Assembly (NCBI RefSeq): GCF_024223415.1
Contig: NZ_CP100500.1
Reading direction: 5' to 3' (one strand)
DNA: 64,000 nucleotides
From: Escherichia coli
GTDB taxonomy: Bacteria; Pseudomonadota; Gammaproteobacteria; Enterobacterales; Enterobacteriaceae
Shown here piece by piece: positions 12,403-31,172 of the stretch. A program made the translations under genes and the position numbers. Within the stretch, counting starts at the first letter, position 1, and each line of letters opens with the position of its first letter. The notes below the pieces were generated by a model that saw only the letters and a list, made by a program, of their open reading frames with translations, did not search any database and was not told where the DNA came from.

Positions 12403-13125
12403 GTGGCGACACTCTTTATTGCAGATCTTCATCTCTGCGTGGAAGAACCGGCGATCACCGCCGGTTTTCTGCGTTTTTTAGCGGGGGAAGCTCGCAAGGC
12501 CGACGCGCTGTATATTCTTGGCGATCTGTTTGAAGCGTGGATTGGCGACGACGATCCCAACCCACTCCATCGCCAGATGGCGGCGGCGATCAAAGCGGTG
12601 TCCGATTCCGGCGTTCCCTGTTATTTCATTCATGGCAACCGTGATTTTCTGCTCGGCAAACGCTTTGCCCGTGAAAGCGGCATGACGTTATTGCCGGAAG
12701 AAAAGGTGCTCGAACTTTATGGTCGCCGGGTGTTGATTATGCATGGCGACACGCTGTGCACCGATGACGCGGGTTATCAGGCTTTTCGCGCCAAGGTCCA
12801 CAAACCCTGGCTGCAGACGCTATTCCTCGCCCTGCCGTTGTTTGTGCGCAAACGCATTGCCGCGCGAATGCGCGCGAACAGTAAAGAAGCCAACAGCAGT
12901 AAATCGCTGGCGATCATGGACGTTAACCAAAACGCGGTGGTCAGTGCGATGGAAAAACATCAGGTGCAATGGCTGATTCACGGGCATACCCATCGCCCGG
13001 CGGTACATGAACTTATCGCCAACCAGCAACCTGCTTTTCGCGTGGTACTCGGTGCCTGGCATACAGAAGGTTCGATGGTGAAAGTCACGGCGGATGACGT
13101 TGAGCTGATTCATTTTCCGTTTTAA
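12403..13125 (+). CDS. lpxH: UDP-2,3-diacylglucosamine hydrolase
   Basis: 240-aa [14 protein letters not shown]... with calcineurin-like metallophosphatase motifs (GDLFEAW, GNRD). Confidence 0.95.
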
Positions 13126-13242
13126 AAAACCCGCAACTTTGCTGATTTCACAGCCACGCAACCGTTTTCCTTGCTCTCTTTCCGTGCTATTCTCTGTGCC
13201 CTCTAAAGCCGAGAGTTGTGCACCACAGGAGTTTTAAGACGC

Positions 13243-13752
13243 ATGTCTTCCCGCAATAATCCGGCGCGTGTCGCCATCGTGATGGGGTCCAAAAGCGACT
13301 GGGCTACCATGCAGTTCGCCGCCGAAATCTTCGAAATCCTGAATGTCCCGCACCACGTTGAAGTGGTTTCTGCTCACCGCACCCCCGATAAACTGTTCAG
13401 CTTCGCCGAAAGCGCCGAAGAGAACGGTTATCAGGTGATTATTGCGGGCGCAGGCGGCGCAGCGCACCTGCCAGGCATGATTGCTGCCAAAACGCTGGTG
13501 CCAGTGCTGGGCGTGCCAGTACAGAGCGCCGCACTGAGCGGTGTCGATAGCCTCTACTCCATCGTACAAATGCCGCGCGGCATTCCGGTGGGTACGCTGG
13601 CGATTGGTAAAGCTGGCGCGGCAAACGCGGCGTTACTGGCAGCACAAATTCTTGCGACTCATGATAAAGAACTGCACCAGCGTCTGAATGACTGGCGCAA
13701 AGCCCAGACCGACGAAGTGCTGGAAAACCCGGACCCGCGAGGTGCGGCATGA
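13243..13752 (+). CDS. purE: N5-carboxyaminoimidazole ribonucleotide mutase
   Basis: 169-aa product from [20 protein letters not shown]... Confidence 0.95.
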
Positions 13753-14816
13753 AACAGGTTTGCGTCCTCGGTAACGGGCAGTTAGGCCGTATGCTGCGTC
13801 AGGCAGGCGAACCGTTAGGCATTGCTGTCTGGCCAGTCGGGCTGGACGCTGAACCGGCGGCGGTGCCTTTTCAACAAAGCGTGATTACCGCTGAGATCGA
13901 ACGCTGGCCGGAAACCGCATTAACCCGCGAGCTGGCGCGCCATCCGGCCTTTGTGAACCGCGATGTGTTCCCGATTATTGCTGACCGTCTGACTCAGAAG
14001 CAGCTTTTCGATAAGCTCCACCTGCCGACCGCACCGTGGCAGTTACTTGCCGATCGCAGCGAGTGGCCTGCGGTGTTTGATCGTTTAGGTGAGCTGGCGA
14101 TTGTTAAGCGTCGCACTGGTGGCTATGACGGTCGCGGTCAATGGCGTTTACGTGCCGATGAAACCGAACAGTTACCGGCTGAATGCTACGGCGAATGTAT
14201 AGTCGAGCAGGGCATAAACTTCTCTGGTGAAGTGTCGCTGGTTGGCGCGCGCGGCTTTGATGGCAGCACCGTGTTTTATCCGCTGACGCATAACCTGCAT
14301 CAGGACGGTATTTTGCGCACCAGCGTCGCTTTCCCGCAGGCCAATGCACAGCAGCAAGCGCAAGCCGAAGAGATGCTGTCGGCGATTATGCAGGAGCTGG
14401 GCTATGTGGGCGTGATGGCGATGGAGTGTTTTGTCACCCCGCAAGGTCTGCTGATCAACGAACTGGCTCCGCGTGTGCATAACAGCGGTCACTGGACACA
14501 AAACGGTGCCAGCATCAGCCAGTTTGAGCTGCATCTGCGGGCGATTACCGATCTGCCGTTACCGCAACCAGTGGTGAATAATCCGTCGGTGATGATCAAT
14601 CTGATTGGTAGCGATGTGAATTATGACTGGCTGAAACTGCCGCTGGTGAATCTGCACTGGTACGACAAAGAAGTCCGTCCGGGCCGTAAAGTGGGGCATC
14701 TGAATTTGACCGACAGCGACACATCGCGTCTGTCCGCGACGCTGGAAGCCTTAATCCCGCTGCTGCCGCCGGAGTATGCCAGCGGCGTGATGTGGGCACA
14801 GAGTAAGTTCAGTTAA
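13749..14816 (+). CDS. purK: N5-carboxyaminoimidazole ribonucleotide synthase
   Basis: 355-aa ATP-grasp ORF overlapping the purE stop (operon). Confidence 0.95.
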
Positions 14817-14829
14817 CCTGGTGCTCATT

Positions 14830-14925
14830 TGATTGCCGGATGCGGCGTGAACGCCTTATCCGGCCTACACCGCTCCGGTACCCATTGTAGGCCTGATAAG
14901 ACGCGTCAAGCGTCGCATCAGGCAT
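14830..14925. repeat. REP/BIME palindromic units between purK and ybcF
   Basis: GCCGGATGCGGCGTGAACGCCTTATCCGGCCTAC and GTAGGCCTGATAAGACGCGTCAAGCGTCGCATCAGGC, typical REP sequences. Confidence 0.7.
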
Positions 14926-14954
14926 GGTGCACCGATTGCTGGATGCTCTCATCA

Positions 14955-15848
14955 CTACAGCGAAATACAGGTCCCCGCTTCGCCCGCCAGCGTCTCTTCA
15001 ATTCGCGATAACGCCCCAATCCACGCGGGTTTACCACGGCTTCTGACATAACCACTCACCGCCGTTACCTTCGGCCCCATCGAACCATCGGCTTTGGCAA
15101 ATGGCGCTAACTCATCCGGTGTGGCATGGCGAATGGCACGTTGCTGCGGCGTTCCCCAGTTTTCATATACCGCATCAGCATCGGTGAGGATCACCAGTCC
15201 ATCTGCATTAATCTGCTCGGCGAGCAACGCAGCGGCGAGATCTTTATCAATCACCGCTTCACTCCCTGCTCCGTCATCCGTCACAGGCACACCGCCGCCG
15301 CCGCTGCAAATCACCACATGCCCCTCTTTGAGCAACAACTCGATGGCTTCGCTGTCGAGAATTTTACGCGGTTGCGGAGACGCCACCACCCGGCGCAAAT
15401 ATTTACCATCACGTTTCATCTGCCAGCCGTAAGCCGCTTCCAGTGCCTCTTGTTCTTCTGGCTGATAAACCGGACCAATAAATTTCTCTGGCTGCAAAAA
15501 CGCCGGATCATCAGGCGAAACTTCAATGCGCGTCAGCACCGTCGTGACAGGCGGCATCTGCGGCTGTGCGCTCAAACTCTGCGCCAGCATATAGCCAATC
15601 ATCCCCTGACTTTCTGCCACCAGCACATCCAGCGGATACGGTTCTACCTCTTTCCACGCCAGATTCTGCAATGCCAGCAACCCCACCTGCGGCCCGTTGC
15701 CGTGAACAATCGCCAGCCGATAAGAACGGGCCAGGCGCGCCAGCGCGGGTACAGCACTGGCGATATTGCGATATTGATTTTCTGCCGTCAGCGCCTCACC
15801 GCGCTGGAGTAAGGCGTTGCCCCCAAGAGCTACAACCAGTGTTTTCAT
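14955..15848 (-). CDS. ybcF: Carbamate kinase-like protein
   Basis: 297-aa product from [18 protein letters not shown]...; amino-acid kinase family. Confidence 0.85.
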
Positions 15849-16660
15849 GGTTTTCCTTGTAATAATTGTTGGCCAAGCCAAAACCCCAGCAGCGTATCTG
15901 CCCCTGACGTATGCCCCAGCGCCAGCAGCGAATCAATCGCAACAGCGGTACGTTTCGGGCAACTCAGAGCATGAACAAAGTGCAGGAGTGGCGAGGCGAA
16001 ATATCCTTGCGCGGCATAACGTAAATAACTGACGCTCACCGCTGTGGTAACGAGTTGCAGATTGTCGGAACAGGCAAAAAACGGACGACCGGAGCGCGCA
16101 TCTAAAGCGCCATAATACCAGGCCGCCAGCAGCATTCCGCTCAGCGTGTCATCATGACTCGGCGTTAATCCGGGGCCTTTACCCAGCCAGTGCCGCCAGT
16201 CGGTCTTAACGCCATTGAGCGCGGCCTGAAAACAGTGACGAAACTGGCGTAACTCAGCAGGCAGCGGATCGCTTGCCGCCAACGCCAGTGGCCCGAAAAG
16301 CCCGTTTTCCTCCGCGCGTTGCATCCATGCAGCTGCAAGTGGTTGAGGATGCGCAGGCGGCGTAATACGCAGCAAACAATAACGCTGTGGCTGTTTAACC
16401 GTGAAACGCCCGAGGCGAATCCCTTGAGCCACAACCTGTGGTCGTTCATTGCCGCATAATCCACCGCATAACGCATCGAATTGCGCACGGCGAAGCACCC
16501 ATCCTCCGGGGCCGAAACCACTACCCTGACGATGCAGCGTTAACAGTTCGCCGCTTTCCGTCATCAGGTTAATCGCCCGCCGCCACACTCCCGCTAACCG
16601 CCAGGACTGGCGATAATTCGGTGCGCTACTACTGGCAAGCAGAGGATGGATGATCGTCAT
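15845..16660 (-). CDS. ylbF: DUF2877-family protein YlbF
   Basis: 271-aa product from [11 protein letters not shown]...; conserved fdrA-ylbE-ylbF-ybcF cluster. Confidence 0.8.
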
Positions 16661-16670
16661 TGCGCGTTCC

Positions 16671-17930
16671 TCAACCAATCCCCATGCTTTCAGCCAGTGC
16701 TTCCAGCGCCTGTTCAAAACACGCCAGCGGTGCCCGCACGGTGCCTGCGCCAATCTGCCCGATCCCCGCCTCTTTATGGGCGATACCGGTATTGATGAGT
16801 GGCGTAATGCCGGTTTCTACCACGCGACGAATGTCCAGTCCCAGGCACGCGCCCTGAAAATCCCAGCTTGGGATCTGCAACTGCATATTGCGTTCAAGGT
16901 AAATTTCCGCCATCTCTTCAGATACCGCCCTGGCCGCTTCCATGCCACCCGCACCGACAAAGCGCGTTACGCCAGGCGCTGCGATCATTGCCGCACCTCC
17001 GATACCAAAGGTTTCGGTAATCGCGCTATCGCCCATATCCGGGTTCGCCTGCTCCTGCGAGAAGCCGGTGAAAAACAGACCTTGCGGAGTGTTTACAGGC
17101 GCAGTAAACCAGCGTTCGCCCAGCCCGCTTACCCGAATCCCGAACATATTGCCGTTGCGGGTCATTGCCGTGACGATGCTGCCTGCGCGGATCATCGCGC
17201 CAGCATCCATCGCCGCCTTGCAGTAAGCCATCGCGAGGTTGAGGAAGAACTGATCGGTCACGCTGAGGAAATCCATCACTTCCGCGATGTGCTGTTTATC
17301 ATGATCGAGGCGAGCAATTTGTGGGGCCAGCGCACGCATTAACAGTGCTGAGGAAGCAATATTGCGTTGATGGAACTCATCGCCCATCGTAATGCCCTGC
17401 GCCATCATCGCAGTAAGATCGATACCGCGCTCCATGCGCCCCAGCGCCGCGCTTAATACTGGCATTAACACATCGCGCATCCAGCGATGGCGAGTCAGGA
17501 CATCTTCGCCGTAAGCGCCAAAACGCATCACTTTGCCGATACCTTCGTTGAGGTTGCAGTACGCCCGGTTGCCGTCGGTCACGTTCTCGACCACCAGCAT
17601 CGGCATACTGGCAGAAGTAATACCGCCCATTGGCCCGACGGCATTCACATGGTGACAAGGAATGAAGTTCACTTCCCCCAGATCCAGCATCGCCAGTGCC
17701 TGCGCTTCATCTTTCGCCCAGCCTTCAAACAGACATGCGCCCACGCACGCCCCTTTCATTGGCCCGGTCATCTCCTGCCAGCGCATTGGTGGCCCGGCGT
17801 GAAGCAGTGTTTTGCCCTGGTTTAACGCACTGATGAGTGAAGATGCTGGTTTAACATCCAGCCAGTGTGGACGAGCGCGACGAATTTGTTCGATAACCGC
17901 AGCATTGGCTTGCGCCACTGATGTAAACAT
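16671..17930 (-). CDS. ylbE: DUF1116-family protein YlbE (intact here)
   Basis: Single 419-aa ORF with no frameshift. Confidence 0.8.
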
Positions 17931-17939
17931 GGGAACCCC

Positions 17940-19607
17940 TTATTGCAAACGTTCTAATAAACGAGCCAGTTTTTTATTGCCGCCGGCGACTGGCGCCCAT
18001 TGGTAATGCACCACCGGTTTGCTGGCGCTTTGTAGTTCCAGCGCAAAACTGCGTAATCCGATGTTAATCACGGCGACGTTTTCCAGTAATGACGGTGTGT
18101 GTTGCTGTGCGGCAGGCGAGAGCGGATGAATTAACGCTGCCGCCAGCAAGGTGGCTTCCGGTAGCGAACTCACGACCGCAATCCCCGCATCTTCCAGCGT
18201 GGCGATTTGCTGCGAGCGGCATTGCGGGTCACGTTCAGTGCCTGTCACCGTGGCAATGGCATACAGTGGTTGATTGTCTGAACGCGCAGCACAGGCTTTT
18301 TGCCAGGCGCTTACCAGCGAGGCGGCAGGATCGGCGGTCGCACCGAAGCCAATCACGACATCAAGCAGCAGCACACGCACTTGCGGTTTAGCGCCGAGAT
18401 CGGCAATTAACTGGTTGCGTAAGGTTGGGTCGATCATCGGATGGGGACGCCCGACTGTGTAGAAATCATCGCCGAGGTCAATAATCTGGTGACCATCGGC
18501 GTCGAGCATCATGCCGTGATGATGGGCATCATCGGCTTCCACGCCAAGGTGTCCGGCAAGTAATCCCGCCGCTTCGGCAGCCAGCGTACCGCCGGTATAC
18601 AAACCGCAAATAAATCCGCTGCTGGCAGGCGTTATCGCGTTACGTCGCGCCGTAACGCGTGAAAGCAGGCAAGCCAGGCGTGCGGCCTCATCCAGCGAGG
18701 AGGCAAACCAGACATTCTCGTCGCGGGCCACCGCCGGGGTATAACCTAAAAACAGCGCCACCGTCGGTTTGCCGGTTGCTTTCATGGCATTAACAATTTT
18801 CAGACGCACCGCTTCGGCAGGTGGTTTTGAAACAAATGCCAGCACTTCGCTTTTCTCGTCTGCACTGAGCATCTCCAGCGCCGTCAGCGCACTGATGCCG
18901 CCCACTTCACGGCTGAGGTCGCGGCCGCCAAGGCCAATCGCGTGAGTAATTCCCTCCCCTGCCAGCGCAATCTGCGAACACAGCTCCTGAATCCCGGTAC
19001 CGGAAGCGCCAATGACGCCAATATTGCCTTCCGGCATCACGTTAGCAAAAGCCAGCGGCGTGGCGGCAATCATCGACGTACCGCAGTCCGGCCCCATCAC
19101 CAGCAAGCCTTTTTCCCGCGCGCGGGTTTTAAGTTGGATTTCATCTTCCAGCGTGACGTTATCGGAGAACATCATCACGTTGAGGTTGCGATCCAGCGCC
19201 TGATTCGCCAGCTCCGCCGCATACTCGCCAGCCACTGAAATCAGCGCCAGATTGGCATCGGGTAATTTCTGACAGGCACTGTCCCAGCGACGCACCTGCG
19301 TCAACGCCTGGCTGCTGCCTGACCCCTGCGCCAGTTGTTTTAGCGCCTCTTCAAGCTGCTGCATAATCGCCTGCGCGATCCCCGCATCCGCCGCTTCGCT
19401 ACGAATTGCCACGCAAATATCGTTCGGCGTGGCGTTATTAAAATCGTCATGCCAGAAACCTGTGGTATCTAATAACGCTTTATTGGCGGGCGTACCCATC
19501 ATTACGGAAACATCATCAACATTTTCTGATTCGCTGAGTTTTCGTGAAATAATCATTAAACTGACCGAATCCTGAAAACACCCTTTTTTAATAAAGGCGT
19601 GGATCAT
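17940..19607 (-). CDS. fdrA: Acyl-CoA synthetase-like protein FdrA
   Basis: 555-aa ORF; succinyl-CoA synthetase alpha-like CoA-binding fold. Confidence 0.85.
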   Translation of the reverse strand: MIHAFIKKGCFQDSVSLMIISRKLSESENVDDVSVMMGTPANKALLDTTGFWHDDFNNATPNDICVAIRSEAADAGIAQAIMQQLEEALKQLAQGSGSSQALTQVRRWDSACQKLPDANLALISVAGEYAAELANQALDRNLNVMMFSDNVTLEDEIQLKTRAREKGLLVMGPDCGTSMIAATPLAFANVMPEGNIGVIGASGTGIQELCSQIALAGEGITHAIGLGGRDLSREVGGISALTALEMLSADEKSEVLAFVSKPPAEAVRLKIVNAMKATGKPTVALFLGYTPAVARDENVWFASSLDEAARLACLLSRVTARRNAITPASSGFICGLYTGGTLAAEAAGLLAGHLGVEADDAHHHGMMLDADGHQIIDLGDDFYTVGRPHPMIDPTLRNQLIADLGAKPQVRVLLLDVVIGFGATADPAASLVSAWQKACAARSDNQPLYAIATVTGTERDPQCRSQQIATLEDAGIAVVSSLPEATLLAAALIHPLSPAAQQHTPSLLENVAVINIGLRSFALELQSASKPVVHYQWAPVAGGNKKLARLLERLQ

Positions 19608-19923
19608 AACAACTCCTTAAAAATTGCACCCATGGCAATTGCACGAGCAGTGTTAATGTGGCGATTACGGTATCGATGACAACGAGTAAATAAGGTGATG
19701 AATATCACACAGGGATTATTAACAAAAGAATTCAAATAACCGCCAGACTATTACGCGTTATTTTTTAATAAGCATGGTTGTTTTAAAAACCAGGTTAAAA
19801 GCGCGAAGATTATCAAATAAATTCTAACTATATTTTTTTGCCTGTCTGGATCACATAATCCAGATATTTTCCCTGTATGTTAATTGCAGTCATGCTTCAC
19901 ACCGTCGTTAAAAAGGAAGACAG

Positions 19924-20973
19924 ATGAAAATCAGTCGGGAAACACTCCACCAGCTAATTGAGAATAAACTCTGCCAGGCTGGGTTAAAACGTGAGCACGC
20001 TGCAACCGTGGCTGAAGTATTGGTTTACGCCGATGCCAGAGGGATCCACTCTCATGGCGCGGTGCGCGTGGAATACTACGCGGAACGCATTTCAAAAGGC
20101 GGCACCAACCGCGAACCGGAGTTTCGTCTTGAGGAAACCGGGCCGTGCTCGGCAATTTTACATGCCGACAATGCCGCCGGACAGGTCGCGGCGAAAATGG
20201 GTATGGAACATGCCATCAAAACCGCCCAGCAAAATGGCGTTGCGGTGGTCGGTATCAGCCGGATGGGTCACAGCGGCGCAATCTCTTATTTTGTGCAGCA
20301 GGCAGCCCGCGCCGGATTAATTGGCATTTCGATGTGCCAGTCCGATCCAATGGTGGTGCCGTTTGGCGGCGCGGAAATTTACTACGGTACTAACCCACTG
20401 GCCTTTGCCGCGCCGGGAGAAGGCGACGAGATCCTTACCTTTGATATGGCGACTACCGTACAGGCATGGGGAAAAGTGCTCGACGCCCGCTCGCGTAATA
20501 TGTCTATCCCGGATACCTGGGCGGTCGATAAAAACGGTGCACCAACAACCGATCCGTTCGCGGTACATGCTCTGCTCCCCGCAGCCGGGCCGAAAGGGTA
20601 TGGCCTGATGATGATGATTGACGTCCTCTCAGGCGTCTTACTCGGCTTACCGTTCGGGCGACAGGTTAGTTCGATGTATGACGATTTACACGCCGGGCGT
20701 AATTTGGGGCAATTACATGTAGTTATTAACCCGAACTTTTTCTCCTCCAGCGAATTATTCCGTCAACATCTTAGCCAGACCATGCGCGAATTAAATGCCA
20801 TTACCCCCGCGCCCGGTTTTAATCAGGTTTATTATCCCGGACAGGATCAGGATATTAAACAACGCAAAGCCGCCGTCGAAGGCATCGAAATTGTTGATGA
20901 TATTTACCAGTATTTAATTTCCGACGCGCTTTATAACACGTCATACGAAACGAAAAATCCCTTTGCGCAATAA
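19924..20973 (+). CDS. allD: Ureidoglycolate dehydrogenase
   Basis: 349-aa ORF MKISRETLHQLIENKLCQAGL...; first gene of the allDCE operon. Confidence 0.9.
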   Translation: MKISRETLHQLIENKLCQAGLKREHAATVAEVLVYADARGIHSHGAVRVEYYAERISKGGTNREPEFRLEETGPCSAILHADNAAGQVAAKMGMEHAIKTAQQNGVAVVGISRMGHSGAISYFVQQAARAGLIGISMCQSDPMVVPFGGAEIYYGTNPLAFAAPGEGDEILTFDMATTVQAWGKVLDARSRNMSIPDTWAVDKNGAPTTDPFAVHALLPAAGPKGYGLMMMIDVLSGVLLGLPFGRQVSSMYDDLHAGRNLGQLHVVINPNFFSSSELFRQHLSQTMRELNAITPAPGFNQVYYPGQDQDIKQRKAAVEGIEIVDDIYQYLISDALYNTSYETKNPFAQ

Positions 20974-20994
20974 TTATTGAGACAGGACTTTCTT

Positions 20995-22230
20995 ATGATT
21001 ACACATTTTCGTCAAGCCATAGAAGAAGCGCTGCCCTGGCTTTCCTCATTTGGCGCTGACCCAACGGGTGGGATGACCCGTTTACTTTATTCGCCGGAAT
21101 GGCTGGAAACCCAGCAGCAATTTAAAAAAAGAATGGCCGCAAGTGGGCTGGAAACACGTTTCGATGAAGTGGGGAATTTATACGGTCGCCTGAGTGGCAC
21201 CGAATATCCACAGGAAGTGGTTCTGAGCGGTTCGCATATCGATACCGTGGTTAACGGCGGTAACCTCGACGGGCAATTCGGCGCGCTGGCGGCGTGGCTG
21301 GCAATTGACTGGCTGAAAACTCAATACGGCGCACCGCTGCGTACGGTTGAAGTGGTGGCGATGGCGGAAGAAGAAGGCAGCCGCTTCCCGTATGTTTTCT
21401 GGGGCAGTAAAAATATCTTTGGGCTGGCGAATCCTGACGACGTGCGGAATATCTGTGATGCCAAAGGAAATAGTTTTGTCGATGCGATGAAGGCTTGCGG
21501 ATTTACTCTGCCGGACGCCCCGCTAACTCCGCGTCAGGATATTAAAGCCTTTGTCGAACTGCATATCGAACAGGGCTGTGTGCTGGAAAGTAATGGGCAA
21601 TCAATTGGCGTGGTGAATGCAATTGTCGGGCAACGTCGCTATACGGTGACGCTGAACGGCGAATCAAACCATGCAGGCACCACGCCGATGGATTATCGTC
21701 GTGATACGGTTTACGCTTTCAGTCGCATTTGCCATCAGTCGATCGAAAAAGCGAAAAAGATGGGCGACCCGCTGGTGCTGACCTTTGGTAAGGTGGAGCC
21801 GCGCCCGAATACGGTGAATGTGGTGCCGGGTAAAACCACGTTCACCATTGATTGTCGTCATACCGACGCCGCCGTGCTGCGTGATTTCACCCAACAGTTA
21901 GAAAACGACATGCGGGCGATTTGCGATGAAATGGACATTGGTATTGATATCGATTTATGGATGGACGAAGAACCCGTGCCGATGAATAAGGACCTGGTCG
22001 CCACCCTGACAGAATTGTGTGAAAGTGAAAAACTGAATTACCGGGTGATGCACAGTGGTGCCGGGCACGACGCGCAAATTTTCGCGCCTCGCGTGCCGAC
22101 CTGCATGATTTTCATTCCCAGCATCAATGGGATCAGCCATAACCCGGCGGAACGCACCAATATTACCGACCTTGCCGAAGGGGTCAAAACGTTGGCACTC
22201 ATGCTTTATCAACTTGCCTGGCAGAAATAA
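20995..22230 (+). CDS. allC: Allantoate amidohydrolase
   Basis: 411-aa product from MITHFRQAIEEALPW...; M20 peptidase family. Confidence 0.9.
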   Translation: MITHFRQAIEEALPWLSSFGADPTGGMTRLLYSPEWLETQQQFKKRMAASGLETRFDEVGNLYGRLSGTEYPQEVVLSGSHIDTVVNGGNLDGQFGALAAWLAIDWLKTQYGAPLRTVEVVAMAEEEGSRFPYVFWGSKNIFGLANPDDVRNICDAKGNSFVDAMKACGFTLPDAPLTPRQDIKAFVELHIEQGCVLESNGQSIGVVNAIVGQRRYTVTLNGESNHAGTTPMDYRRDTVYAFSRICHQSIEKAKKMGDPLVLTFGKVEPRPNTVNVVPGKTTFTIDCRHTDAAVLRDFTQQLENDMRAICDEMDIGIDIDLWMDEEPVPMNKDLVATLTELCESEKLNYRVMHSGAGHDAQIFAPRVPTCMIFIPSINGISHNPAERTNITDLAEGVKTLALMLYQLAWQK

Positions 22231-22236
22231 GGAGTC

Positions 22237-22249
22237 ATAAATGGGATAT
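22237..22249. repeat. attL core: left copy of the 13-bp direct repeat ATAAATGGGATAT (includes the native allE ATG)
   Basis: Matches ATAAAAGGGATAT at 33890-33902 in 12 of 13 positions; the allE start codon plus 2 codons are followed by foreign sequence. Confidence 0.6.
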
Positions 22250-22322
22250 ATCTATAACTTATTTTCAATAAGGTATTGATTTAATTAAACAACTTACACT
22301 ACAAAAAGTGCCAAAAATCGCA

Positions 22323-22347
22323 AATTAACTACACCATTAACTACACC
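22323..22347. repeat. Tandem AATTAACTACACC / ATTAACTACACC repeats, left arm (candidate integrase arm-type sites)
   Basis: The same 25-bp tandem is present at 33743-33767 next to int; flanking ~60 bp is also similar at both ends. Confidence 0.5.
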
Positions 22348-22639
22348 GTTCGGCGCACTGTATGAAACAACGTGGAACAAATAGGCACAAGAAATATAAA
22401 GGCGGGTAATTTTAAGGGGGCGTTGCTGTCGATACGGGGATCCACATATCGAGATTGATACCTGGCTTTTTTTCCGGTTAACCTTTAATCAGGCTGGTGG
22501 GCTTTACCTGTTCTGTAGGAGTGGTCATTATGACCATTCAGCCAATGACCTTAATCAGAATTTTTCGCTAAAAAATGACGTTGGCCACGTCATCCGGAAA
22601 GCACAAAATCACGTCGATTTTTAATGGATGGTTAAACCG

Positions 22640-23000
22640 TCTTTTTGTCACGGTGTGTCACTGGTTGTCACGCTCTGTCACGATGTCCGGCCTCCTCACA
22701 TTGAGGATTGTGGAAGAATCAATGGGTTAGTCTTACTACCCAAACTACGGGTAGTTTCCGTAGTTTCATGGTCGAGTTGCAGATCTGCAACTCCCCCATC
22801 AACCACAGGCGAATTTCCGCCTTCGGTCATTCCTTAATCATCTGCGTAATCATAATGATTATTCAGCCACCTCAATTTTGAGGTTTGCTTTAAGTTCAGC
22901 GAGTTACCGCGCCGACTTCCTCAAATTGAGGTTTCCGAAAATATCAGTGGGTTAGCGATTAAGCTGACCATTAATTAAACTGCGAAAATTTCGTAGTTTG
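22640..23000. promoter_or_regulatory. Repeat-dense non-coding region; candidate packaging (cos-like) or TerS-binding region
   Basis: Four TGTCAC copies at exact 10-bp spacing (22646-22681); 20-bp perfect palindrome GAGTTGCAGATCTGCAACTC (22774-22793); three CCTCA-N3/4-TGAGG inverted repeats; no convincing ORF. Confidence 0.35.
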
Positions 23001-23087
23001 TGACTGTCTTTCAGGCAGCTTGTTATCAGTCCTCAGATGTGAGGGATGTAGCCAGCGCAATTTTGCGTTATCGGGAATATCAGCAAG

Positions 23088-23369
23088 TTACCGCCGTAAC
23101 CGTTCCGGCTTCTTCCACTGATAAGTGTTTTTCGCGCTCTCCTGATACATCGCCACGCGTCGACGGTATGCCAGCAACTCTAGTACTCTGATTCGTATGT
23201 CGCGCATATCCACGCCGTTAAGCTCAATACCATCACGGCGCATTACATCAGCAACAACACGCACGTAATTTTCGGCGATCACGCTGTCCGGCTGCGTGGC
23301 CTGTTCGTCATGCTGCTGGCTGATTCCGGTAACGCGGCGGATTAATCCCAGTAGTTCGGCTTCTGTCAT
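23088..23369 (-). CDS. Hypothetical protein (island, distal to head module)
   Basis: 93-aa ORF; no recognisable domain; coding status uncertain. Confidence 0.3.
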   Translation of the reverse strand: MTEAELLGLIRRVTGISQQHDEQATQPDSVIAENYVRVVADVMRRDGIELNGVDMRDIRIRVLELLAYRRRVAMYQESAKNTYQWKKPERLRR

Positions 23370-23423
23370 TGTGCCCCCATCGCTCTGATAGTCTGGTGTC
23401 GTCGGGTCCTTCTGGAATTATGG

Positions 23424-23468
23424 CCCGTTACGGGGCGTCGACCTCGCGGTTTTTCGCTATTTATGAGC
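23424..23468. repeat. Inverted repeat, left copy (flanks the Nu1-like gene cassette)
   Basis: Its reverse complement matches 24169-24212 in about 42 of 44 positions, including a perfect 25-bp core CGCGAGGTCGACGCCCCGTAACGGG. Confidence 0.7.
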
Positions 23469-23661
23469 TTTTTTAGAGGGAGGTTGTTGTTTAATTGTTT
23501 GTCATATCCATTTGATAACTAAGTAAAAATAAAGAGCAATACAACAACCTGATAGTGTTTTTTTGATGCTAAAAATAAAAAAATACTAATTGAATCAAAT
23601 AGTTTTAAAAAAATACGTGGTTGTTGTATTGCGTATTTGATGGCGTAACAGAAAGTGATTT

Positions 23662-24102
23662 TTAACTTTGCTGTTCTGTAACGACTGATTGTTCCATGCT
23701 GGCACGGCGAACGCTTACGGCATGACGCCACCCAGCCAGAAAGCCAGCCATTTTATTTCGTGCCTTGCTCACATCTTCCGGTGAATAGCCGTAAATATGC
23801 AAACCTTCATCAAATCGCTGTTCTGTTTCTTCACTGAAATACTCGTCGCGCTCTGACGCAATCAACCTGGCAACCATAATCTTTTCCAGTGCGCTGGTTT
23901 CTCCGTGGTACTCAATAGCATCAAGATGGCTTTTACCCATGCACCAGAATAATGTGTGTCCGATGTGATAACCGCCGGACTTTCCGCGATCCGCATCAAG
24001 ATATGGCATGCCCTGTTTGGTCCATGCGCGAATAGTGGTTCTGTTGACCTTGAAATGTTCTGCTATTTCCTGCTGACTCACAAAACAAGCTTTATCAATC
24101 AT
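23662..24102 (-). CDS. Terminase small subunit, lambda Nu1-like (HTH DNA-packaging protein)
   Basis: 146-aa ORF; N-terminus VSQQEIAEHFKVNRTTIRAWTKQGMPYLDADRGKSGG parallels lambda Nu1 (..IRTIQNWQEQGMPVLRGGGKG..). Confidence 0.7.
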   Translation of the reverse strand: MIDKACFVSQQEIAEHFKVNRTTIRAWTKQGMPYLDADRGKSGGYHIGHTLFWCMGKSHLDAIEYHGETSALEKIMVARLIASERDEYFSEETEQRFDEGLHIYGYSPEDVSKARNKMAGFLAGWRHAVSVRRASMEQSVVTEQQS

Positions 24103-24168
24103 AATGTTACCTTAATCATGCGATTAAATGTTAATCAAGTGGTGGTGGTGTCACCTTCACGGAAAAAC

Positions 24169-24212
24169 GTCATAAATAGCGAAAACGCGCGAGGTCGACG
24201 CCCCGTAACGGG
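24169..24212. repeat. Inverted repeat, right copy (flanks the Nu1-like gene cassette)
   Basis: Partner of 23424-23468 in inverted orientation; the two enclose ~700 bp containing only the Nu1-like gene and an AT-rich tract. Confidence 0.7.
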
Positions 24213-24233
24213 TCCACATGCCGGAAAGGACCC

Positions 24234-24258
24234 GCAAAAAAAGCCGGATTTCTCCGGC
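24234..24258 (-). terminator. Rho-independent terminator after orf137
   Basis: Minus-strand hairpin GCCGGAGAAATCCGGC followed by a T-run; nearly the same terminator recurs at 26509-26532. Confidence 0.5.
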
Positions 24259-24264
24259 CTTGTC

Positions 24265-24678
24265 TCAGATGGTTTTCAGTATGCGATCGATGTCGCCGTC
24301 ATCGCCCTGGTTTGTGCCATCGTATGCCATGCCAGCTGATACGGCTTTCGGGCTGTGCATGTCCATAAAGTTTTCAAAGGCTGAAGTAAGCTCTGGTGCA
24401 ACCTTCGGGCGTTCCTGCTCTATGGTCATGCTAAGGATGCTTTTAGCCGTACCAACATCGATACAAGGCACGTTAGCCATTGCACGTAACAGCGGCTGGT
24501 AGTCGTCAGATTCATGAAGCGCCATAATCGCATCAGCGCGCGGCTTGTCCTGTTCTTCCAGTTTGTTGAGTCGGTGTATGGCCTCGTAGGTTGATAAACC
24601 TCTGTCAGCCATTGCCCGCGCTTCGGCTTTAAATTTACTCGCCAGCGGTAGCTTCATGATACTTTCATTCGTTGCCAT
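24265..24678 (-). CDS. Hypothetical head-module protein (137 aa)
   Basis: ORF directly downstream of the D-like gene in the same operon; acidic C-terminus; no recognisable domain. Confidence 0.5.
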   Translation of the reverse strand: MATNESIMKLPLASKFKAEARAMADRGLSTYEAIHRLNKLEEQDKPRADAIMALHESDDYQPLLRAMANVPCIDVGTAKSILSMTIEQERPKVAPELTSAFENFMDMHSPKAVSAGMAYDGTNQGDDGDIDRILKTI

Positions 24679-24690
24679 CGTTCCCCCTGC

Positions 24691-25026
24691 TTATCGTGCC
24701 AGCGGCTGAACGGATACGCCGGAACCCGCAAAGGCGGCGCATTTTTTCGCATCGGTGTCGACGCTATCAGGCCAGTTAACGGCGGCAATATTGAATATCC
24801 CCGTTTTGTAACACTGTGCTGATTTCTGCTTTGACGTGTCCACGGGGTGCGAAGTCAGATAAACAGCTTTGCCAGATTCCTGACCATCCCACGCCTTAAA
24901 CTCGCCATTGTCTGCCAGCATCAGCGGGGTAAATTCCTGAATAACGCCAGCATCAGCGGCAAAATGTACCAGCGTCGTGGATACCTGCTGGCTGCCTGAA
25001 AATAACTCAATGTATGGAGCGTCCAT
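24691..25026 (-). CDS. Head decoration protein, lambda gpD-like
   Basis: 111-aa ORF with gpD-like motifs (TPLMLAD..AWDG..KTGIF..WP..AAFAGSG) and lambda D size. Confidence 0.75.
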   Translation of the reverse strand: MDAPYIELFSGSQQVSTTLVHFAADAGVIQEFTPLMLADNGEFKAWDGQESGKAVYLTSHPVDTSKQKSAQCYKTGIFNIAAVNWPDSVDTDAKKCAAFAGSGVSVQPLAR

Positions 25027-25037
25027 AGAATCCCCCG

Positions 25038-26093
25038 TTAAGCAATTTTGACGGTAACAAATTTGCGAATATCTGCCGGTACCGGCTGCGGTGCGCTGTG
25101 CGTCTGCACGTACTCAATCGCCGGATCGCCGTCCTCAATCCAGTTTTTCGGGTAGTACATGTTTTGCGTTGCGCCCGTTCTTACCGCTTCCTGATCCATA
25201 ATCGCACCATATGCCACCAGCCCTTTATTGTTGGTGTTACCCAGGACCAGCAAATCAGGCTCAAGGAAATATTTTTCGGTGCCGTCGCTGTCAGTGTATT
25301 TGCCGGAATAGACGATAAGGGCCAGATCACCAAGATAGCCTTTAAAGCTCACCACTTCGCCCAGGTTTTTACAGGCCAGCTCGGCGGCGGATTCTGACCC
25401 ACGGGAAAGATCGTACAGTTCACGGAATTTTTTAAAGCTGCGTAATGTGCGCCATACCTCACCGCCCATAATCATGACGTTGGCGGGGCAACCTGCCTGA
25501 TCAGCATAAAGCTCGATGTCATAGATTGGGTCGTGCATGTCTTTATCCTGCTGGGACCATTTTTTACCACTGGCCTGCTGTATGATGCAGTTTTCCGGTA
25601 TTTTCCAGTCGATTTCATAGCGTTCTATGCCTTCGCCCTCAATGATGTTTTTTCCGGTCGTTACCGCATTCACCGCCAGCCATTCAACACGCGCTTTAAT
25701 GGCGTTTACCTGGCGGCGCATGTTGCCAGTAATCAGGCGCATACGGCGATAGGTTGGGTCGTTAAGCTGTGCCGGATCTTCTCCAGCCATGCGCATGATG
25801 GTCTTTGTTGGATCGATTTCGTGCTTTGGCTTCATGTAGCCTGGTTTAATCGTGCTGGTTTCGTACCCTTTATCGCGCTGGACCTGACTACCCACCATAG
25901 GAGAACAGAACGCAGACATCGTAACCTCTTCAATGTCCAGGGTGTCCAGCATGATGTTTTGGGTGTTGAAGGTCGCCACGTTCGGGAAAAACAGCGTGGT
26001 AAACAGCGGACTAAATTTAAATTCCGAAATATCCCCGCGATTCAGGTACGCGAAAAGCTGGTTAGTTGTAAGTGCCGTTGCTTTGCCTGTCAT
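25038..26093 (-). CDS. Major capsid protein, lambda gpE family
   Basis: 351-aa ORF with many lambda gpE identities (PGYMKPKHE, DPTYRRMRLI, VVSFKGYLGDLALIVYSGKY, VLGNT, YPKNW..GDPA, SAP). Confidence 0.85.
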   Translation of the reverse strand: MTGKATALTTNQLFAYLNRGDISEFKFSPLFTTLFFPNVATFNTQNIMLDTLDIEEVTMSAFCSPMVGSQVQRDKGYETSTIKPGYMKPKHEIDPTKTIMRMAGEDPAQLNDPTYRRMRLITGNMRRQVNAIKARVEWLAVNAVTTGKNIIEGEGIERYEIDWKIPENCIIQQASGKKWSQQDKDMHDPIYDIELYADQAGCPANVMIMGGEVWRTLRSFKKFRELYDLSRGSESAAELACKNLGEVVSFKGYLGDLALIVYSGKYTDSDGTEKYFLEPDLLVLGNTNNKGLVAYGAIMDQEAVRTGATQNMYYPKNWIEDGDPAIEYVQTHSAPQPVPADIRKFVTVKIA

Positions 26094-26299
26094 TATTCAC
26101 CTCCGTGAACCTGATTGATACCCAGCGCCGCACGTAAATAGGTGCGCACCTGCCAGCCTGTTGACGGCTCAACCATCGCCAGCGGATCAAGTCCTGCCGC
26201 AATGCCTGCTTTTACATTCTGCTGGTGGCGTTCCTTGAGCGCCTCCACGATGTCGGGGCTTATGTAGACCGTCACCCCGCCTTTTTTCTCTTCTGCCAT
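26093..26299 (-). CDS. Hypothetical protein translationally coupled to the capsid gene (68 aa)
   Basis: ORF whose stop overlaps the capsid gene start; no recognisable domain. Confidence 0.45.
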   Translation of the reverse strand: MAEEKKGGVTVYISPDIVEALKERHQQNVKAGIAAGLDPLAMVEPSTGWQVRTYLRAALGINQVHGGE

Positions 26300-26508
26300 A
26301 GTCAGAAATTCCTCTTTGACTTAAAAAATCATAACTGGATGTTCATCCAGTCCTGATTATAATCATGATTGCATTTTGTGCAATAATGTTGAGTTGTGTT
26401 GCAAATTATGAAATGATTATCCCGATCATGTGTGTCAGTGCACCATAAAAAACCTCGTATACAAAAGCCCGATAAGCCCCCTGTGACCTTATCGGGCTTT
26501 TTTTAGGC

Positions 26509-26532
26509 GTAAAAAAGCCGGATTGCTCCGGC
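26509..26532 (-). terminator. Rho-independent terminator after the PerC-like gene
   Basis: Minus-strand hairpin GCCGGAGCAATCCGGC followed by a T-run. Confidence 0.5.
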
Positions 26533-26539
26533 TGTGTGC

Positions 26540-26812
26540 TCACTTCTGCGGGTAGTTGCGCCATATTGCTTTGCCAATACCAGCTATCCCCATTTGTTTT
26601 TCAGTGCGATTAACTGACCTTTTCAGAGCGCCTAAATCATCCGGCGGCTCCGGTGGCCTCTGTGCCTTCCGTGAACATTCCAGCCGTCGCATTGCCACCT
26701 GTGCGCGTTCCTTGTCTGTCTCCACCAGCATCATCACTTCACCCCATCGCGCGGCCGCCCTCCGGTAAAATCCTTTCGCCTCCAGTTCCTCCGCTATCCG
26801 GTCATGTACCAT
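26540..26812 (-). CDS. PerC-family transcriptional regulator-like protein
   Basis: ORF 26540..26932; likely start MVHDRIAEELEAKGFYRRAAARWGEVMMLV, resembling PerC-family proteins; assignment from memory of the family. Confidence 0.5.
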   Translation of the reverse strand: MVHDRIAEELEAKGFYRRAAARWGEVMMLVETDKERAQVAMRRLECSRKAQRPPEPPDDLGALKRSVNRTEKQMGIAGIGKAIWRNYPQK

Positions 26813-26822
26813 CGTCACCCCC

Positions 26823-27233
26823 TCAGAACGGAATATCATCACCGTAAGGGTCATCGCCTCCCGCTGGTGGCTGATTACCCTGTGTGCCTGTGGTTTTGCG
26901 TCTGTTCCCGCCAGGACGTGCCGCACGGGCACTGATTACGCTGTCTGCGATGACCTGCCAGCCCTGCCGCGTTTCGCCGTTCTGGCCTGTCCACTGGCTT
27001 ACCTGCATGTTACCCGCCACGCTCACCAGTTCGCCTTTGTGGTGTCTGGCCAGTGCGTCGGCCTGTCTGCCAAACGCCAGGACGGATAACCACATCGTCG
27101 CCGTTCCGTCATCTGCCTGGCTGCATGGCAGGGGAACCGCCATACTCGCCATCGCCATTTGTGTCCCTTTGCTGGTCTGTTTTGTCTGCGGGTCGTCCAC
27201 CAGCCGCCCGTAAGCCGCTATCTGTGCTGTCAT
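26823..27233 (-). CDS. Single-stranded DNA-binding protein (SSB)
   Basis: 136-aa ORF with OB-fold-like N-terminus, Gly/Pro-rich linker and the canonical acidic SSB tail ...GDDIPF. Confidence 0.8.
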   Translation of the reverse strand: MTAQIAAYGRLVDDPQTKQTSKGTQMAMASMAVPLPCSQADDGTATMWLSVLAFGRQADALARHHKGELVSVAGNMQVSQWTGQNGETRQGWQVIADSVISARAARPGGNRRKTTGTQGNQPPAGGDDPYGDDIPF

Positions 27234-27487
27234 GCTGTCTGCTCTCCGGTTTTAACATTGATGGTTGTCACCTGTTCCGCTCCGGCAATCTCCCGCTCTG
27301 TCAGCGTGGCAAAGTTTGCCGCCGTCGTTGTCATGAATGCGCTTATCAGTTCGGGATGTGCTTTCGCGTATCCTTCCCCCGTGTTGCGGTCGATGATTTT
27401 TATCGCCACCCTCAGCCAGTGCTCTGTAAGGTCAATGGCGCGGTTATGTGATTTCTTCTGATTGTTAAATTTTTCTGATGTGTGCAT
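27230..27487 (-). CDS. Hypothetical protein (85 aa) upstream of ssb
   Basis: ORF overlapping the ssb start by 4 nt; no recognisable domain. Confidence 0.45.
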   Translation of the reverse strand: MHTSEKFNNQKKSHNRAIDLTEHWLRVAIKIIDRNTGEGYAKAHPELISAFMTTTAANFATLTEREIAGAEQVTTINVKTGEQTA

Positions 27488-27529
27488 TTTTATTTTTACC
27501 CCCTCGTTTAAAAAGTTTTGAGTTGTGGT

Positions 27530-27770
27530 GCACCTCCTCTACCTCTCTACACAATCATCTTTCAGGTCAGTAATGGCGCGGCTTTCAGCGGGGTAGAGGG
27601 CTTTTTTGGCCCTCTACCCGCCATCTACCACCCCCTCACAAATGCCCTGAATTATGGTAGAGGGTGTAGAGGGCTTTTAAGTACCTTCTACCTGCCATCC
27701 ACCCAATCTATCCACATGAAATATATGTAATTATTTTCTTAAGGTAGAAGGGGTAGAGGGCTTTTGTCTA
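27530..27770. repeat. Iteron array; candidate replication origin of the island
   Basis: At least six copies or variants of GGTAGAGGG(C)TTTT and its complement CCCTCTACC in about 240 bp of non-coding DNA directly 3' of the primase gene. Confidence 0.6.
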
Positions 27771-27773
27771 AAA

Positions 27774-29522
27774 CTATAAAAACGCGTCGCAGTCGTCTGT
27801 TGTTGTCACGTTGGTTTGCGTAAACCCTTTAATCCTGCGCGTTATATATTCATGACCGTAAACTTTCGCCGCTGGCTTCATGGCCTTGCTGAACTCAGCC
27901 ACGTTCAGCGGTTTGCTCCTGCCTGCATACGCCATAAACGCCAGATAGACGCGGTAAAGGCTGTTTCTGGTCGTGTACTTCACTGAATCGCCACCGCCGC
28001 CCATCATCAGGCCACGTGCTTCCTCCAGAAAATTCAGGAACTGGCAAAACTCAATAACCGGATCCGTCTGTTGCTTTATTGCCAGAGCTTCATCACCGTC
28101 TCGCTGTTCAATGAGTAAAGCCCGTGCCTTTTCAGGGTCGGCAAAGTTCGCCAGCAAGCGGCGGATAATGACAGGGATTTCAGCCGCGATCTTTTCCGGT
28201 AGCTCCCTGTCTTTTTCTGCCTCGCTTACGATGTTATCGAACCGGAATATCACCCGACGACGTGACACGCCTCCTGCCCGTTCGGTGAATATCATCGGGT
28301 TATTATTGGTTGCCAGCACAACCGCCCTGATTACCGCCGTGAATCGCTTTTCATATTTCGGGTTGATTTCCACGGGGTCGCCGCCCGTGATTTTCTTGAT
28401 GCCCGTTCCTTCGCCTGTATATTTCGGCTGGTCTGCCAGGACAATAAGCCTACTCCCGACAACCTGCGCACGCCCACCAGCATCATCAAGCGATGTCATC
28501 TCAGCGCTTACCGTGTTCTGTTTCCCTGCCAGAAGGCTGGCTATGTGTGTGAATGTACTTTTACCGCTCCCGCCGTCTCCGGTGGCCTCAATAAACATCT
28601 GCCAGTCGTACCGGTTCGCCATAATCATGTACAGCGCGGCACATATACGCATCATCTTGCGCGGGTCTTTTCCGGCAGCGTGATCAAGCCATTTATGAAA
28701 GTTTGGCGCGTTGTCGCGGATATTCTCACCTGGTACTGGCGGCGTGTACTCAATGCCGTTGTGTGTGGTGATCCAGTTCTCCGGCGTGTGCGGGGAAAAT
28801 TCCCCCGTTTTCAGGTCAAGCGCACCATTGGCGAACGGCAGCAAATCGCCGGACGGCTCGCCCATTGGTTCGGCAATAACTTTTAACGCTTCCACGGCGT
28901 TACTGATTACGCGCTTGCTGAAAGTGGCCCTGTGCTCTGAATAGATCGCCACCATTTCGCGGCTCAGTTCCATTGTGCTGACCGGACACCATACCCCGCC
29001 GCGCCATACGTGAACGATTTCACTTTCCAGATGCACACAAACGCCATCAAATCGACCAGCAAGCATCTGTGCGCGCTCACTGTCTGCCATTTGTGCCAGT
29101 TGCGTATTTTTCTGCTCCGGCATGGTAAGCCCTGCGGCAATATTTTCACGCTCAGCATTCAGATAGCGCCGCCAGTTTTCACACTTCTGACCGTGCATTC
29201 CTTCAGAGTAAAAATTCGCATCCTGAATATCTGCCGCCGCCAGCTTCTGACCAATCTTTTTGGTCTCCACTAAATCCAGTTCTCCGGCCTGGTACAGCCT
29301 TACGCGTTTTTTTCCATCCGGAACAATTTTCAGCGCATCAAGTTCAGCAAGCTGATTTGGCCCAAGCCACACAGGCGGCACATTATCGCCGGATGCGGGA
29401 CCGTCCTTCTCCTGCCACTGTTGTGCATGCGACCAGGCATCACTACCCGCAAAGATAATTACCTCTGTGTCTTTGTGTTTTATTCCGCGTGGCTGTTTTT
29501 TTACGTTCGGTGCCAGTTTCAT
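27774..29522 (-). CDS. Phage/plasmid primase-helicase (P4 alpha family; D5_N plus P-loop NTPase)
   Basis: 582-aa ORF; Walker A GDGGSGKST; architecture and size typical of satellite or PICI Pri-Rep proteins. Confidence 0.85.
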   Translation of the reverse strand: MKLAPNVKKQPRGIKHKDTEVIIFAGSDAWSHAQQWQEKDGPASGDNVPPVWLGPNQLAELDALKIVPDGKKRVRLYQAGELDLVETKKIGQKLAAADIQDANFYSEGMHGQKCENWRRYLNAERENIAAGLTMPEQKNTQLAQMADSERAQMLAGRFDGVCVHLESEIVHVWRGGVWCPVSTMELSREMVAIYSEHRATFSKRVISNAVEALKVIAEPMGEPSGDLLPFANGALDLKTGEFSPHTPENWITTHNGIEYTPPVPGENIRDNAPNFHKWLDHAAGKDPRKMMRICAALYMIMANRYDWQMFIEATGDGGSGKSTFTHIASLLAGKQNTVSAEMTSLDDAGGRAQVVGSRLIVLADQPKYTGEGTGIKKITGGDPVEINPKYEKRFTAVIRAVVLATNNNPMIFTERAGGVSRRRVIFRFDNIVSEAEKDRELPEKIAAEIPVIIRRLLANFADPEKARALLIEQRDGDEALAIKQQTDPVIEFCQFLNFLEEARGLMMGGGGDSVKYTTRNSLYRVYLAFMAYAGRSKPLNVAEFSKAMKPAAKVYGHEYITRRIKGFTQTNVTTTDDCDAFL

Positions 29523-29818
29523 TTTTTACCCCTGAATACGTTAAGCATCTTTTTTATTTCCTGAATATTGGCGCGTGCTTTCTCCCTGCTGGTTGGTTTA
29601 CTGCGGGGCGCTGCCTGTACCAGAGAAAAATCACGCCGGAACTGATAAACAGGCATCACGCAATCATATTCGTAGCCTTCACGGCGGTAAGTGATGCGCC
29701 GTTCCTCCACGCCTTTAATCGTTACCGTGCCGCCGTACTGGTCGCGGTAAATATCGCCGTTCATAAATTCAGGCCGAGCGGGGCCGCTGGCATTAACGCC
29801 AGTATTTTTCATTCCCAT
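29519..29818 (-). CDS. Hypothetical protein (99 aa), translationally coupled to primase
   Basis: Stop overlaps the primase start by 4 nt; basic protein of unknown function. Confidence 0.5.
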   Translation of the reverse strand: MGMKNTGVNASGPARPEFMNGDIYRDQYGGTVTIKGVEERRITYRREGYEYDCVMPVYQFRRDFSLVQAAPRSKPTSREKARANIQEIKKMLNVFRGKK

Positions 29819-29822
29819 ATAA

Positions 29823-30065
29823 TTAAATTCCGTTTGTGTGGTGTTTTAATTCGTCAATTTTTTCTAATGCTTTGTTTATCTTGCTGGTGGAAATATCCAG
29901 CAATTCAGAAATAGCAAATATAAGTCTTGCCGTTGATTCATCTCTTTCGTTGTTTGACAGCAATTGAAACCACACGTTTGTAATTTCAATTGCCGAATTA
30001 TTATAGGTTATTGCACTGTTCATGTATTCCGACACCTCTGCAAGCGAAAGTTTATTATTCTCCAT
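29823..30065 (-). CDS. Hypothetical protein (80 aa), AT-rich accessory gene
   Basis: Locally AT-rich ORF within the minus-strand operon. Confidence 0.4.
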   Translation of the reverse strand: MENNKLSLAEVSEYMNSAITYNNSAIEITNVWFQLLSNNERDESTARLIFAISELLDISTSKINKALEKIDELKHHTNGI

Positions 30066-30246
30066 AACGTTCTACCCTCTCATCAATTAACCACAGTGCA
30101 ACACTTCCTGACAGTCTTGCCAGAAGGCCAGCTAATGCGGATATATCATCATCATTTAATTTATTAGGGTACGCTTCAAGAAGTCTGCAAATAATTTCGG
30201 TTTGGTGGGCGCGTTCAGCGGCTTCGTGTAATGTAATTTCCTTCAT
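30055..30246 (-). CDS. Hypothetical protein (63 aa)
   Basis: ORF overlapping its neighbours by a few nt (operon). Confidence 0.4.
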   Translation of the reverse strand: MKEITLHEAAERAHQTEIICRLLEAYPNKLNDDDISALAGLLARLSGSVALWLIDERVERYGE

Positions 30247-30431
30247 TAATGCACCTCTTTTAATTCATACACTGCTGAAATAATGACTTGTGATAAGCCA
30301 TATTCTGATGATTCGCTTCTCACCGCAGCAATAGCCGTCTGAACATTAACAGCCTTCACATTCTGAGCGATACCAATTGTGTGGCCTAGTGGGTTAACAG
30401 CTCGGGCAAATACACGGAAGGTTTTAAGCAT
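30246..30431 (-). CDS. Hypothetical protein (61 aa)
   Basis: ORF overlapping its neighbours (operon). Confidence 0.4.
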   Translation of the reverse strand: MLKTFRVFARAVNPLGHTIGIAQNVKAVNVQTAIAAVRSESSEYGLSQVIISAVYELKEVH

Positions 30432-30789
30432 GGCGCACCCCCTGAATAACCTGATATCCGCAACTGGTCAGCAATTCGATAAATTCCGGCAGAGTGCCAA
30501 AACAGCAATCAGTGCGTAGCTGTTCGCAGGATACCTCAACGCCGTTTTCGTAATGGCTCACTATGCGCCCGGTAAAATGCGGATCATCATCGTGATGGCA
30601 CGTTGACGGTTTCATCAGCCGCGCGCGTTCCGCCAGTTCCAGCAATGCTTCAACGCTTCCGGCAATTGCACCATCCGGCAGGTGATAATTACTTACTACG
30701 CGTCCATTCTCTACATTGACCAGTAGCTGTCCGGTAAATTTCTCACGAAACTGAACGCGGTTAAGATCGGTAAGTGACAGGTTAATCAT
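30424..30789 (-). CDS. Hypothetical Cys/His-containing protein (about 122 aa)
   Basis: ORF track 30424..30831; ATG at 30789 overlaps the upstream gene stop (ATGATTAA); contains CHHDDDPH...C..CC, a possible metal site. Confidence 0.45.
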   Translation of the reverse strand: MINLSLTDLNRVQFREKFTGQLLVNVENGRVVSNYHLPDGAIAGSVEALLELAERARLMKPSTCHHDDDPHFTGRIVSHYENGVEVSCEQLRTDCCFGTLPEFIELLTSCGYQVIQGVRHA

Positions 30790-30979
30790 GGCACACCTCC
30801 TGACGAATACGGGCGGCGAATACAGCGACACAACCGGACGGGCAACGGTTACGCGCTTCGCGTTCTGTCCAGGCGGTCACGTGGATAATTTGAGATTCTC
30901 CGGCACTCAGTGCCAGAAAACGCCACACAAAGGCGGTTTGTGTGTGCGCAAGGCGTGGGGTATGCTGTGTTCCAGCCAT
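30782..30979 (-). CDS. Small protein resembling P4 Icd-like / Ash-family (host cell-division inhibitor-like)
   Basis: 65-aa ORF MAGTQHTPRLAHTQTAFVWRFLALSAGESQIIHVTAWTEREARNRC...; SD GAGGT 7 nt upstream; first gene of the leftward operon; family assignment tentative. Confidence 0.4.
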   Translation of the reverse strand: MAGTQHTPRLAHTQTAFVWRFLALSAGESQIIHVTAWTEREARNRCPSGCVAVFAARIRQEVCHD

Positions 30980-31151: not shown

Positions 31152-31172
31152 CTAATAACAAGGAAATCAGAT

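Follow-up and report, generated by a model that had tools for sequence, protein, structure and literature searches.

The open reading frame at positions 16671-17930 of the window (the window being the whole stretch of 64,000 nucleotides analysed here, from E. coli contig NZ_CP100500.1, assembly GCF_024223415.1) is, with high confidence, an ordinary full-length ylbE/allG gene. Its intact state is the norm in E. coli, and the window that carries it is not K-12 but of the KV7 lineage. The initial annotation had assigned a frameshift to the ylbE gene of MG1655 and had taken the intact gene as an argument against an MG1655-derived backbone. That the backbone is not derived from MG1655 is correct, but this follows from the alignment (approximately 880 mismatches over approximately 50.7 kb) and not from the intactness of ylbE. 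The gene itself is already characterised, and nothing new about ylbE is found here. The real lineage markers for the window are a mosaic patch inside ylbE and the identity of the whole backbone, rather than the integrity of the gene.

An ordinary allG gene in a conserved operon

As the initial annotation had stated, ylbE is a single ORF of 419 aa. The list of open reading frames places it at the same coordinates on the minus strand, with an ATG start and no internal stop. The protein matches the Pfam family PF06545 (AllG) over the entire model (1-215 of 215), with E = 7.7e-98 and 326.7 bits against a cut-off of 27. This family, previously DUF1116, is now named 'Oxamate carbamoyltransferase subunit AllG'. 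The MG1655 protein AllG (ALLG_ECOLI / P77129, b4572; b0519 in PMC11326118) is like that of the window in its length of 419 aa, its start, its stop, its slot in the operon and its PF06545 domain. The two genes align without a gap over 1260 nt of 1260 nt, with 30 nucleotide and 6 amino-acid differences (97.62% nucleotide and 98.6% amino-acid identity). Relative to MG1655 AllG, the window carries Q27K, E35A, E38Q, I81M, E83D and Q84L, all of them between residues 27 and 84, N-terminal to the Pfam domain. The window protein is exactly WP_000495324.1, the protein of KV7 and SCU-316, which occurs on at least 1000 public contigs. The possibility that 16671-17930 is a chance open reading frame was ruled out by the full-model PF06545 match and the gapless alignment to MG1655 ylbE.

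The surroundings of the gene are equally regular. On one side of ylbE lies allF (fdrA), on the other side allH (ylbF) followed by allK (ybcF), and allD-allC-allE adjoin. The first gene of the operon, fdrA/allF (17940-19607, minus strand), is intact with 555 aa; it matches NCBIfam NF004760 'acyl-CoA synthetase FdrA' with 1044.9 bits, together with Pfam CoA-ligase and CoA-binding domains, and has a nucleotide identity of 98.08% to MG1655. The gene ylbF/allH (15845-16660, minus strand) is intact with 271 aa and matches Pfam PF11392 AllH (E = 4.5e-29); it keeps the MG1655 length and differs at 3 nt. The gene ybcF/allK (14955-15848, minus strand) is intact with 297 aa and matches the carbamate kinase family NF006926 of NCBIfam (E = 2.9e-187). 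Across fdrA-ylbE-ylbF-ybcF, the gene lengths and the gaps of 9 and 10 nt all equal those of MG1655, as does the 4-nt overlap, which lies between ybcF and ylbF in both genomes.

These four genes form one transcript according to RT-PCR, and YbcF is a catabolic carbamate kinase (PMC9843812). The purified AllF, AllG and AllH proteins of MG1655 have oxamic transcarbamylase activity (Kim and Kim, PMC11326118). This enzyme belongs to the oxamate branch of anaerobic allantoin degradation, where it converts oxalurate and phosphate into oxamate and carbamoyl phosphate; AllK (YbcF) makes ATP from the latter. Deletion of allF, allG or allH in K-12 MG1655 leaves allantoin no longer converted to oxamate (PMC11326118). 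Because 413 of the 419 residues are identical to those of the assayed MG1655 protein, we infer that the AllG allele of the window would have the same oxamic transcarbamylase activity.

We also observed that YlbE (419 aa) and FdrA (555 aa) share one cluster in a 90%-identity protein collection, with FdrA as the representative. This co-clustering is probably an artefact of the clustering; a fused gene call may have linked the two.

The supposed MG1655 frameshift is a feature of an obsolete record

The premise that MG1655 carries a ylbE frameshift does not hold for the current record NC_000913.3 and is instead a feature of the obsolete U00096.2. In NC_000913.3, ylbE (b4572, YP_009029994.1) is an intact CDS at 548357-549616, with 1260 nt, 419 aa and no internal stop. 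The historical K-12 frameshift site is a run of G at nt 252-256 of the gene (17675-17679 in the window, minus strand), where the window has five G and keeps the frame. The start of this run, nt 252, is common to the window and NC_000913.3, and the simulated removal of one G produced a stop after aa 86. A second position, nt 114 (17817, minus strand), is also informative: it is G in the window and in NC_000913.3. By contrast, the ylbE of the W3110 record and of U00096.2, at the same locus, differs at both sites: nt 114 is A, and the run, at nt 252-255, counts only four G, so that translation ends after aa 86. W3110 RefSeq (NC_007779.1, 547581-548839) gives the gene 1259 nt and labels it 'frameshifted'.

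The primary source for the comparison of MG1655 stocks is reportedly Freddolino et al. 2012, which is used here through the papers citing it. Relative to NC_000913.2, where the locus is the 'pseudogene ylbE', the changes are A to G at 547,694 and an additional G at 547,831 (PMC5460176). A passage in PMC4404585 places the insertion in ylbE at base 253, and the ylbE change is described as having 'restored an intact ancestral gene' (PMC3045373). In 2013, U00096.3 took the place of U00096.2, the reason given in PMC5210515 being that no specific isolate stood behind the older sequence.

We then asked how the two alleles are distributed. The frameshift allele was present in 4 of 5,426 complete genomes, namely the W3110 record and the three K-12-sized assemblies CIT, LIM and CAR (NZ_CP026026-28). 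In these three, ylbE stands at the coordinates of W3110, consistent with pre-2013 numbering, and the assemblies may have been built on the old reference. On the other hand, the five-G allele was found in resequenced MG1655 (NZ_CP032667.1), C600, J53, ME8067, ER1709, JM83 and DH5a, and the genes of JM83 and DH5a are 100% identical to that of NC_000913.3. The window is thus without the ylbE frameshift, and so are NC_000913.3 and most K-12 assemblies; the frameshift of the W3110 RefSeq record is absent in nearly all the others. For the species as a whole, we sampled 60 records at even steps from a ranking by similarity to MG1655 ylbE. A gapless ylbE of 1260 nt was present in 59 of them, the exception being AR_0085 (NZ_CP029741.1), in which only nt 822-1260 are left, next to fdrA. 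None of the eight ylbE alleles that were translated contained an internal stop. A truly broken ylbE, as in AR_0085, occurs in very few complete genomes; AR_0085 also has a satellite at the allE site.

An intact ylbE is therefore the norm both in the species and in K-12, and has no diagnostic value for MG1655 descent. The opposite reading, in which MG1655 is frameshifted and the intact gene itself speaks against an MG1655-derived backbone, has its origin in real records: the obsolete MG1655 record did list ylbE as a pseudogene (PMC5460176, PMC3045373), and the frameshift persists in W3110 RefSeq and, as the same allele, in CIT, LIM and CAR. We nevertheless hold this reading to be highly improbable. 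The NC_000913.3 gene is intact, the five-G allele recurs in resequenced MG1655 and in the K-12 strains listed above, and MG1655 from which allG has been deleted no longer makes oxamate, so that the wild-type gene works (PMC11326118). Moreover, nearly all E. coli have an intact ylbE, hence its state discriminates nothing. The argument of the initial annotation from the intact gene is unsound for the same reason, with NC_000913.3 and most K-12 assemblies being intact too. The 'MG1655 frameshift' is not usable as a marker of MG1655 descent, and more generally, pseudogene states taken from old records (U00096.2 against U00096.3) are unfit for strain typing.

The backbone diverges from K-12 along its whole length

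A whole-window alignment against MG1655, which the initial annotation had proposed as the check, was run against positions 485,000-600,000 of NC_000913.3 and showed that the backbone is not identical to that of K-12. Overall, the backbone of the window is approximately 98.3% identical to MG1655, with core blocks between 97.8% and 98.8%. Five blocks were aligned: 263-14946 with 98.64% identity, 14885-22258 with 97.83%, 33890-49958 with 98.41%, 49747-52819 (rhs) with 94.24%, and 52810-62377 with 98.78%. For the segments 1-262, 22259-33889 and 62378-64000, this part of MG1655 contained no matching sequence.

One might suppose that the window is a K-12 derivative that differs only in its acquired pieces, namely the island, rhs and the locus after ybbJ. 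The gene order from argU to ybbJ, which is collinear with MG1655, is in line with this. However, the divergence extends across the whole backbone, with 189, 150, 255, 173 and 112 mismatches in the five blocks respectively, and each of the operon genes differs by 1-2%. In addition, six non-K-12 genomes match the window at 99.7-100%. The probability that we give to a K-12 derivative is accordingly close to nil, and we retain the reading of a backbone that is not K-12.

The description of the strain as 'K-12-like' by the initial annotation is also not apt and fits only the shared core gene order. In the even-step ranking of 60 records by similarity to MG1655 ylbE, the window gene would stand at about row 50. 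Therefore, at least at ylbE and in the genomes sampled, the majority of E. coli lie nearer to K-12 than the window strain does.

The window belongs to the KV7 / SCU-316 lineage

The 99.7-100% matches to the window are six complete genomes: KV7, SCU-316, NCTC10444, O78 strain 3, GPEC1446 and NCTC9112. Against KV7 (NZ_LT795502.1), we counted 18 mismatches and one gap over 52.4 kb (99.96% identity), and the identity to SCU-316 was 99.96-99.98%. Around ylbE, all six genomes are 100% identical to the window over 1.8 kb. The window belongs to the KV7 / SCU-316 lineage, in which it is placed reliably by the identity of the backbone together with the ylbE patch described below.

To our knowledge, the region of the window contains none of the genes used in Clermont typing. 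For the phylogroup we follow the publication on the nearest relative, KV7 (PMC5609401), which assigns this O27 strain from pig faeces to phylogroup D.

A 174-bp mosaic patch within ylbE

The differences between the window ylbE and that of MG1655 are not spread evenly. A mosaic patch of 174 bp, approximately 11% divergent, occupies nt 78-251 of the gene (17680-17853, minus strand). It contains 20 of the 30 nucleotide differences and all 6 of the amino-acid differences from MG1655. Outside the patch, the ylbE of the window is a single base off that of O55:H7 CB9615, whereas inside it there are 16-20 differing positions against each of seven diverse alleles. The clustering of the substitutions was significant by a binomial test, with P = 5e-11 against MG1655 and P = 1e-16 against O55:H7. 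Nineteen codons of the patch are changed, 13 of them synonymously and 6 nonsynonymously. In a sensitive blastn search, the patch was 100% identical in 6 of 5,426 complete genomes, and these are the six of the KV7 lineage; the next best of the 5,418 stood at 91.6%, with nothing between.

We looked for the source of the patch in several collections. An exact 30-mer from the patch had no match in 100,044 species-representative genomes, nor did a degenerate pattern for 11 residues in the same genomes, and the 30-mer had no match in metagenome contigs. A protein search with the N-terminal 117 aa, which returned mostly short fragments, found the residues K27, A35, Q38 and M81 in fragments labelled Salmonella and Klebsiella, and none of the fragments from this search had all six patch residues. 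We rejected gene conversion by an intragenomic paralogue, since sensitive blastn found one matching place per genome in all six carriers.

We read the patch as a putative short import, by homologous recombination, from a diverged functional ylbE. It might instead be an artefact of assembly or sequencing, or a local burst of mutation, in which case no tract was imported; the three scans for a donor, two by pattern among the species representatives and one among the metagenome contigs, all of them without a hit, count in favour of such an origin. We consider this very unlikely. Six complete genomes, sequenced independently of one another, have the same patch, and the exact protein recurs on the many public contigs counted above. 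The ratio of synonymous to nonsynonymous codons is typical of a diverged allele that is functional, and not of random damage. Several of the replacement residues are those seen in the Salmonella- and Klebsiella-labelled fragments. The six genomes hold no second copy that could have served as an internal donor.

A putative phage satellite separates allE from its start codon

The initial annotation had mentioned an island, and positions 22259-33889 found no match in the part of MG1655 that was aligned. As a gap in the alignments against MG1655 and KV7, the insertion spans 22250-33895 (11.6 kb; no strand assigned). Neither MG1655 nor any of the six closest genomes has it. Its ORFs matched PHROGs families for an integrase, a repressor-like protein, a primase, an SSB, a major head protein, a head decoration protein and a small-terminase-like protein, whereas no match to tail, portal or large-terminase families was found among the ORFs scanned. 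Phage head and integrase genes in the company of no tail, portal or large terminase point to a phage satellite. A 7-bp core, GGGATAT, stands at 22243-22249 and again at 33896-33902, and the integration falls on the start codon of allE. Relatives of the satellite occur in CFT073 and many other strains, with 88-97% identity over 71-77% of the query. AR_0085 has a related satellite at the same site, and there the annotation pipeline calls a shortened allE.

The consequence for allE can be read directly from the two junctions. The body of allE (33894-34679, plus strand) is left without a start codon: the ATG is now AAG, and an in-frame TGA TAA directly precedes it. The native ribosome-binding site and ATG of allE remain at 22232-22243, on the far side of the satellite and 11.6 kb away. 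Compared with KV7, the sole difference in allE is the T to A change at nt 2, and the next in-frame start according to the ORF finder is a GTG at 33954. In the six closest genomes, which are without the 11.6-kb satellite, the start codon of allE is intact. We conclude that normal translation of AllE, whose step lies upstream of AllG, is probably lost in the window strain. With the start codon of allE lost, an intact ylbE is therefore no guarantee of a working pathway in this strain.

A more far-reaching model would make the satellite a reversible switch of allE ('active lysogeny') and, as a separate element, would derive the AllG patch from an unsampled Escherichia-like lineage, with an altered fit between the subunits. 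In such a model, the integrated satellite would keep allE off, and with it the enzymatic supply of allantoin nitrogen to AllFGH; precise excision of the satellite would restore an allE with its ATG and this supply. We regard this model as speculative and very unlikely.

Other segments that differ from K-12

Two further points of the initial annotation agree with the alignment. The first is that the rhs region differs from K-12: the Rhs core is 94.2% identical to MG1655 rhsD, with flanks of approximately 98.5%. The second is a non-K-12 locus after ybbJ, and 62378-64000 does depart from MG1655.

At the left end of the window, positions 1-1535 are the end of a prophage, in which an intD-type integrase adjoins tRNA-Arg (argU). 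This prophage end is common to KV7, and beyond the integrase its contents are unlike those of the K-12 prophage DLP12. SCU-316 is without it: there the alignment begins at window position 1535, and envY follows the tRNA. At the rhs locus (window 49747-52819), KV7 has an RHS core protein gene of 4203 nt and then a different downstream ORF. The segment after ybbJ corresponds in KV7 to an islet between ybbJ and cueR, with genes for a hypothetical protein and a YadA-family autotransporter adhesin and with two small ORFs.
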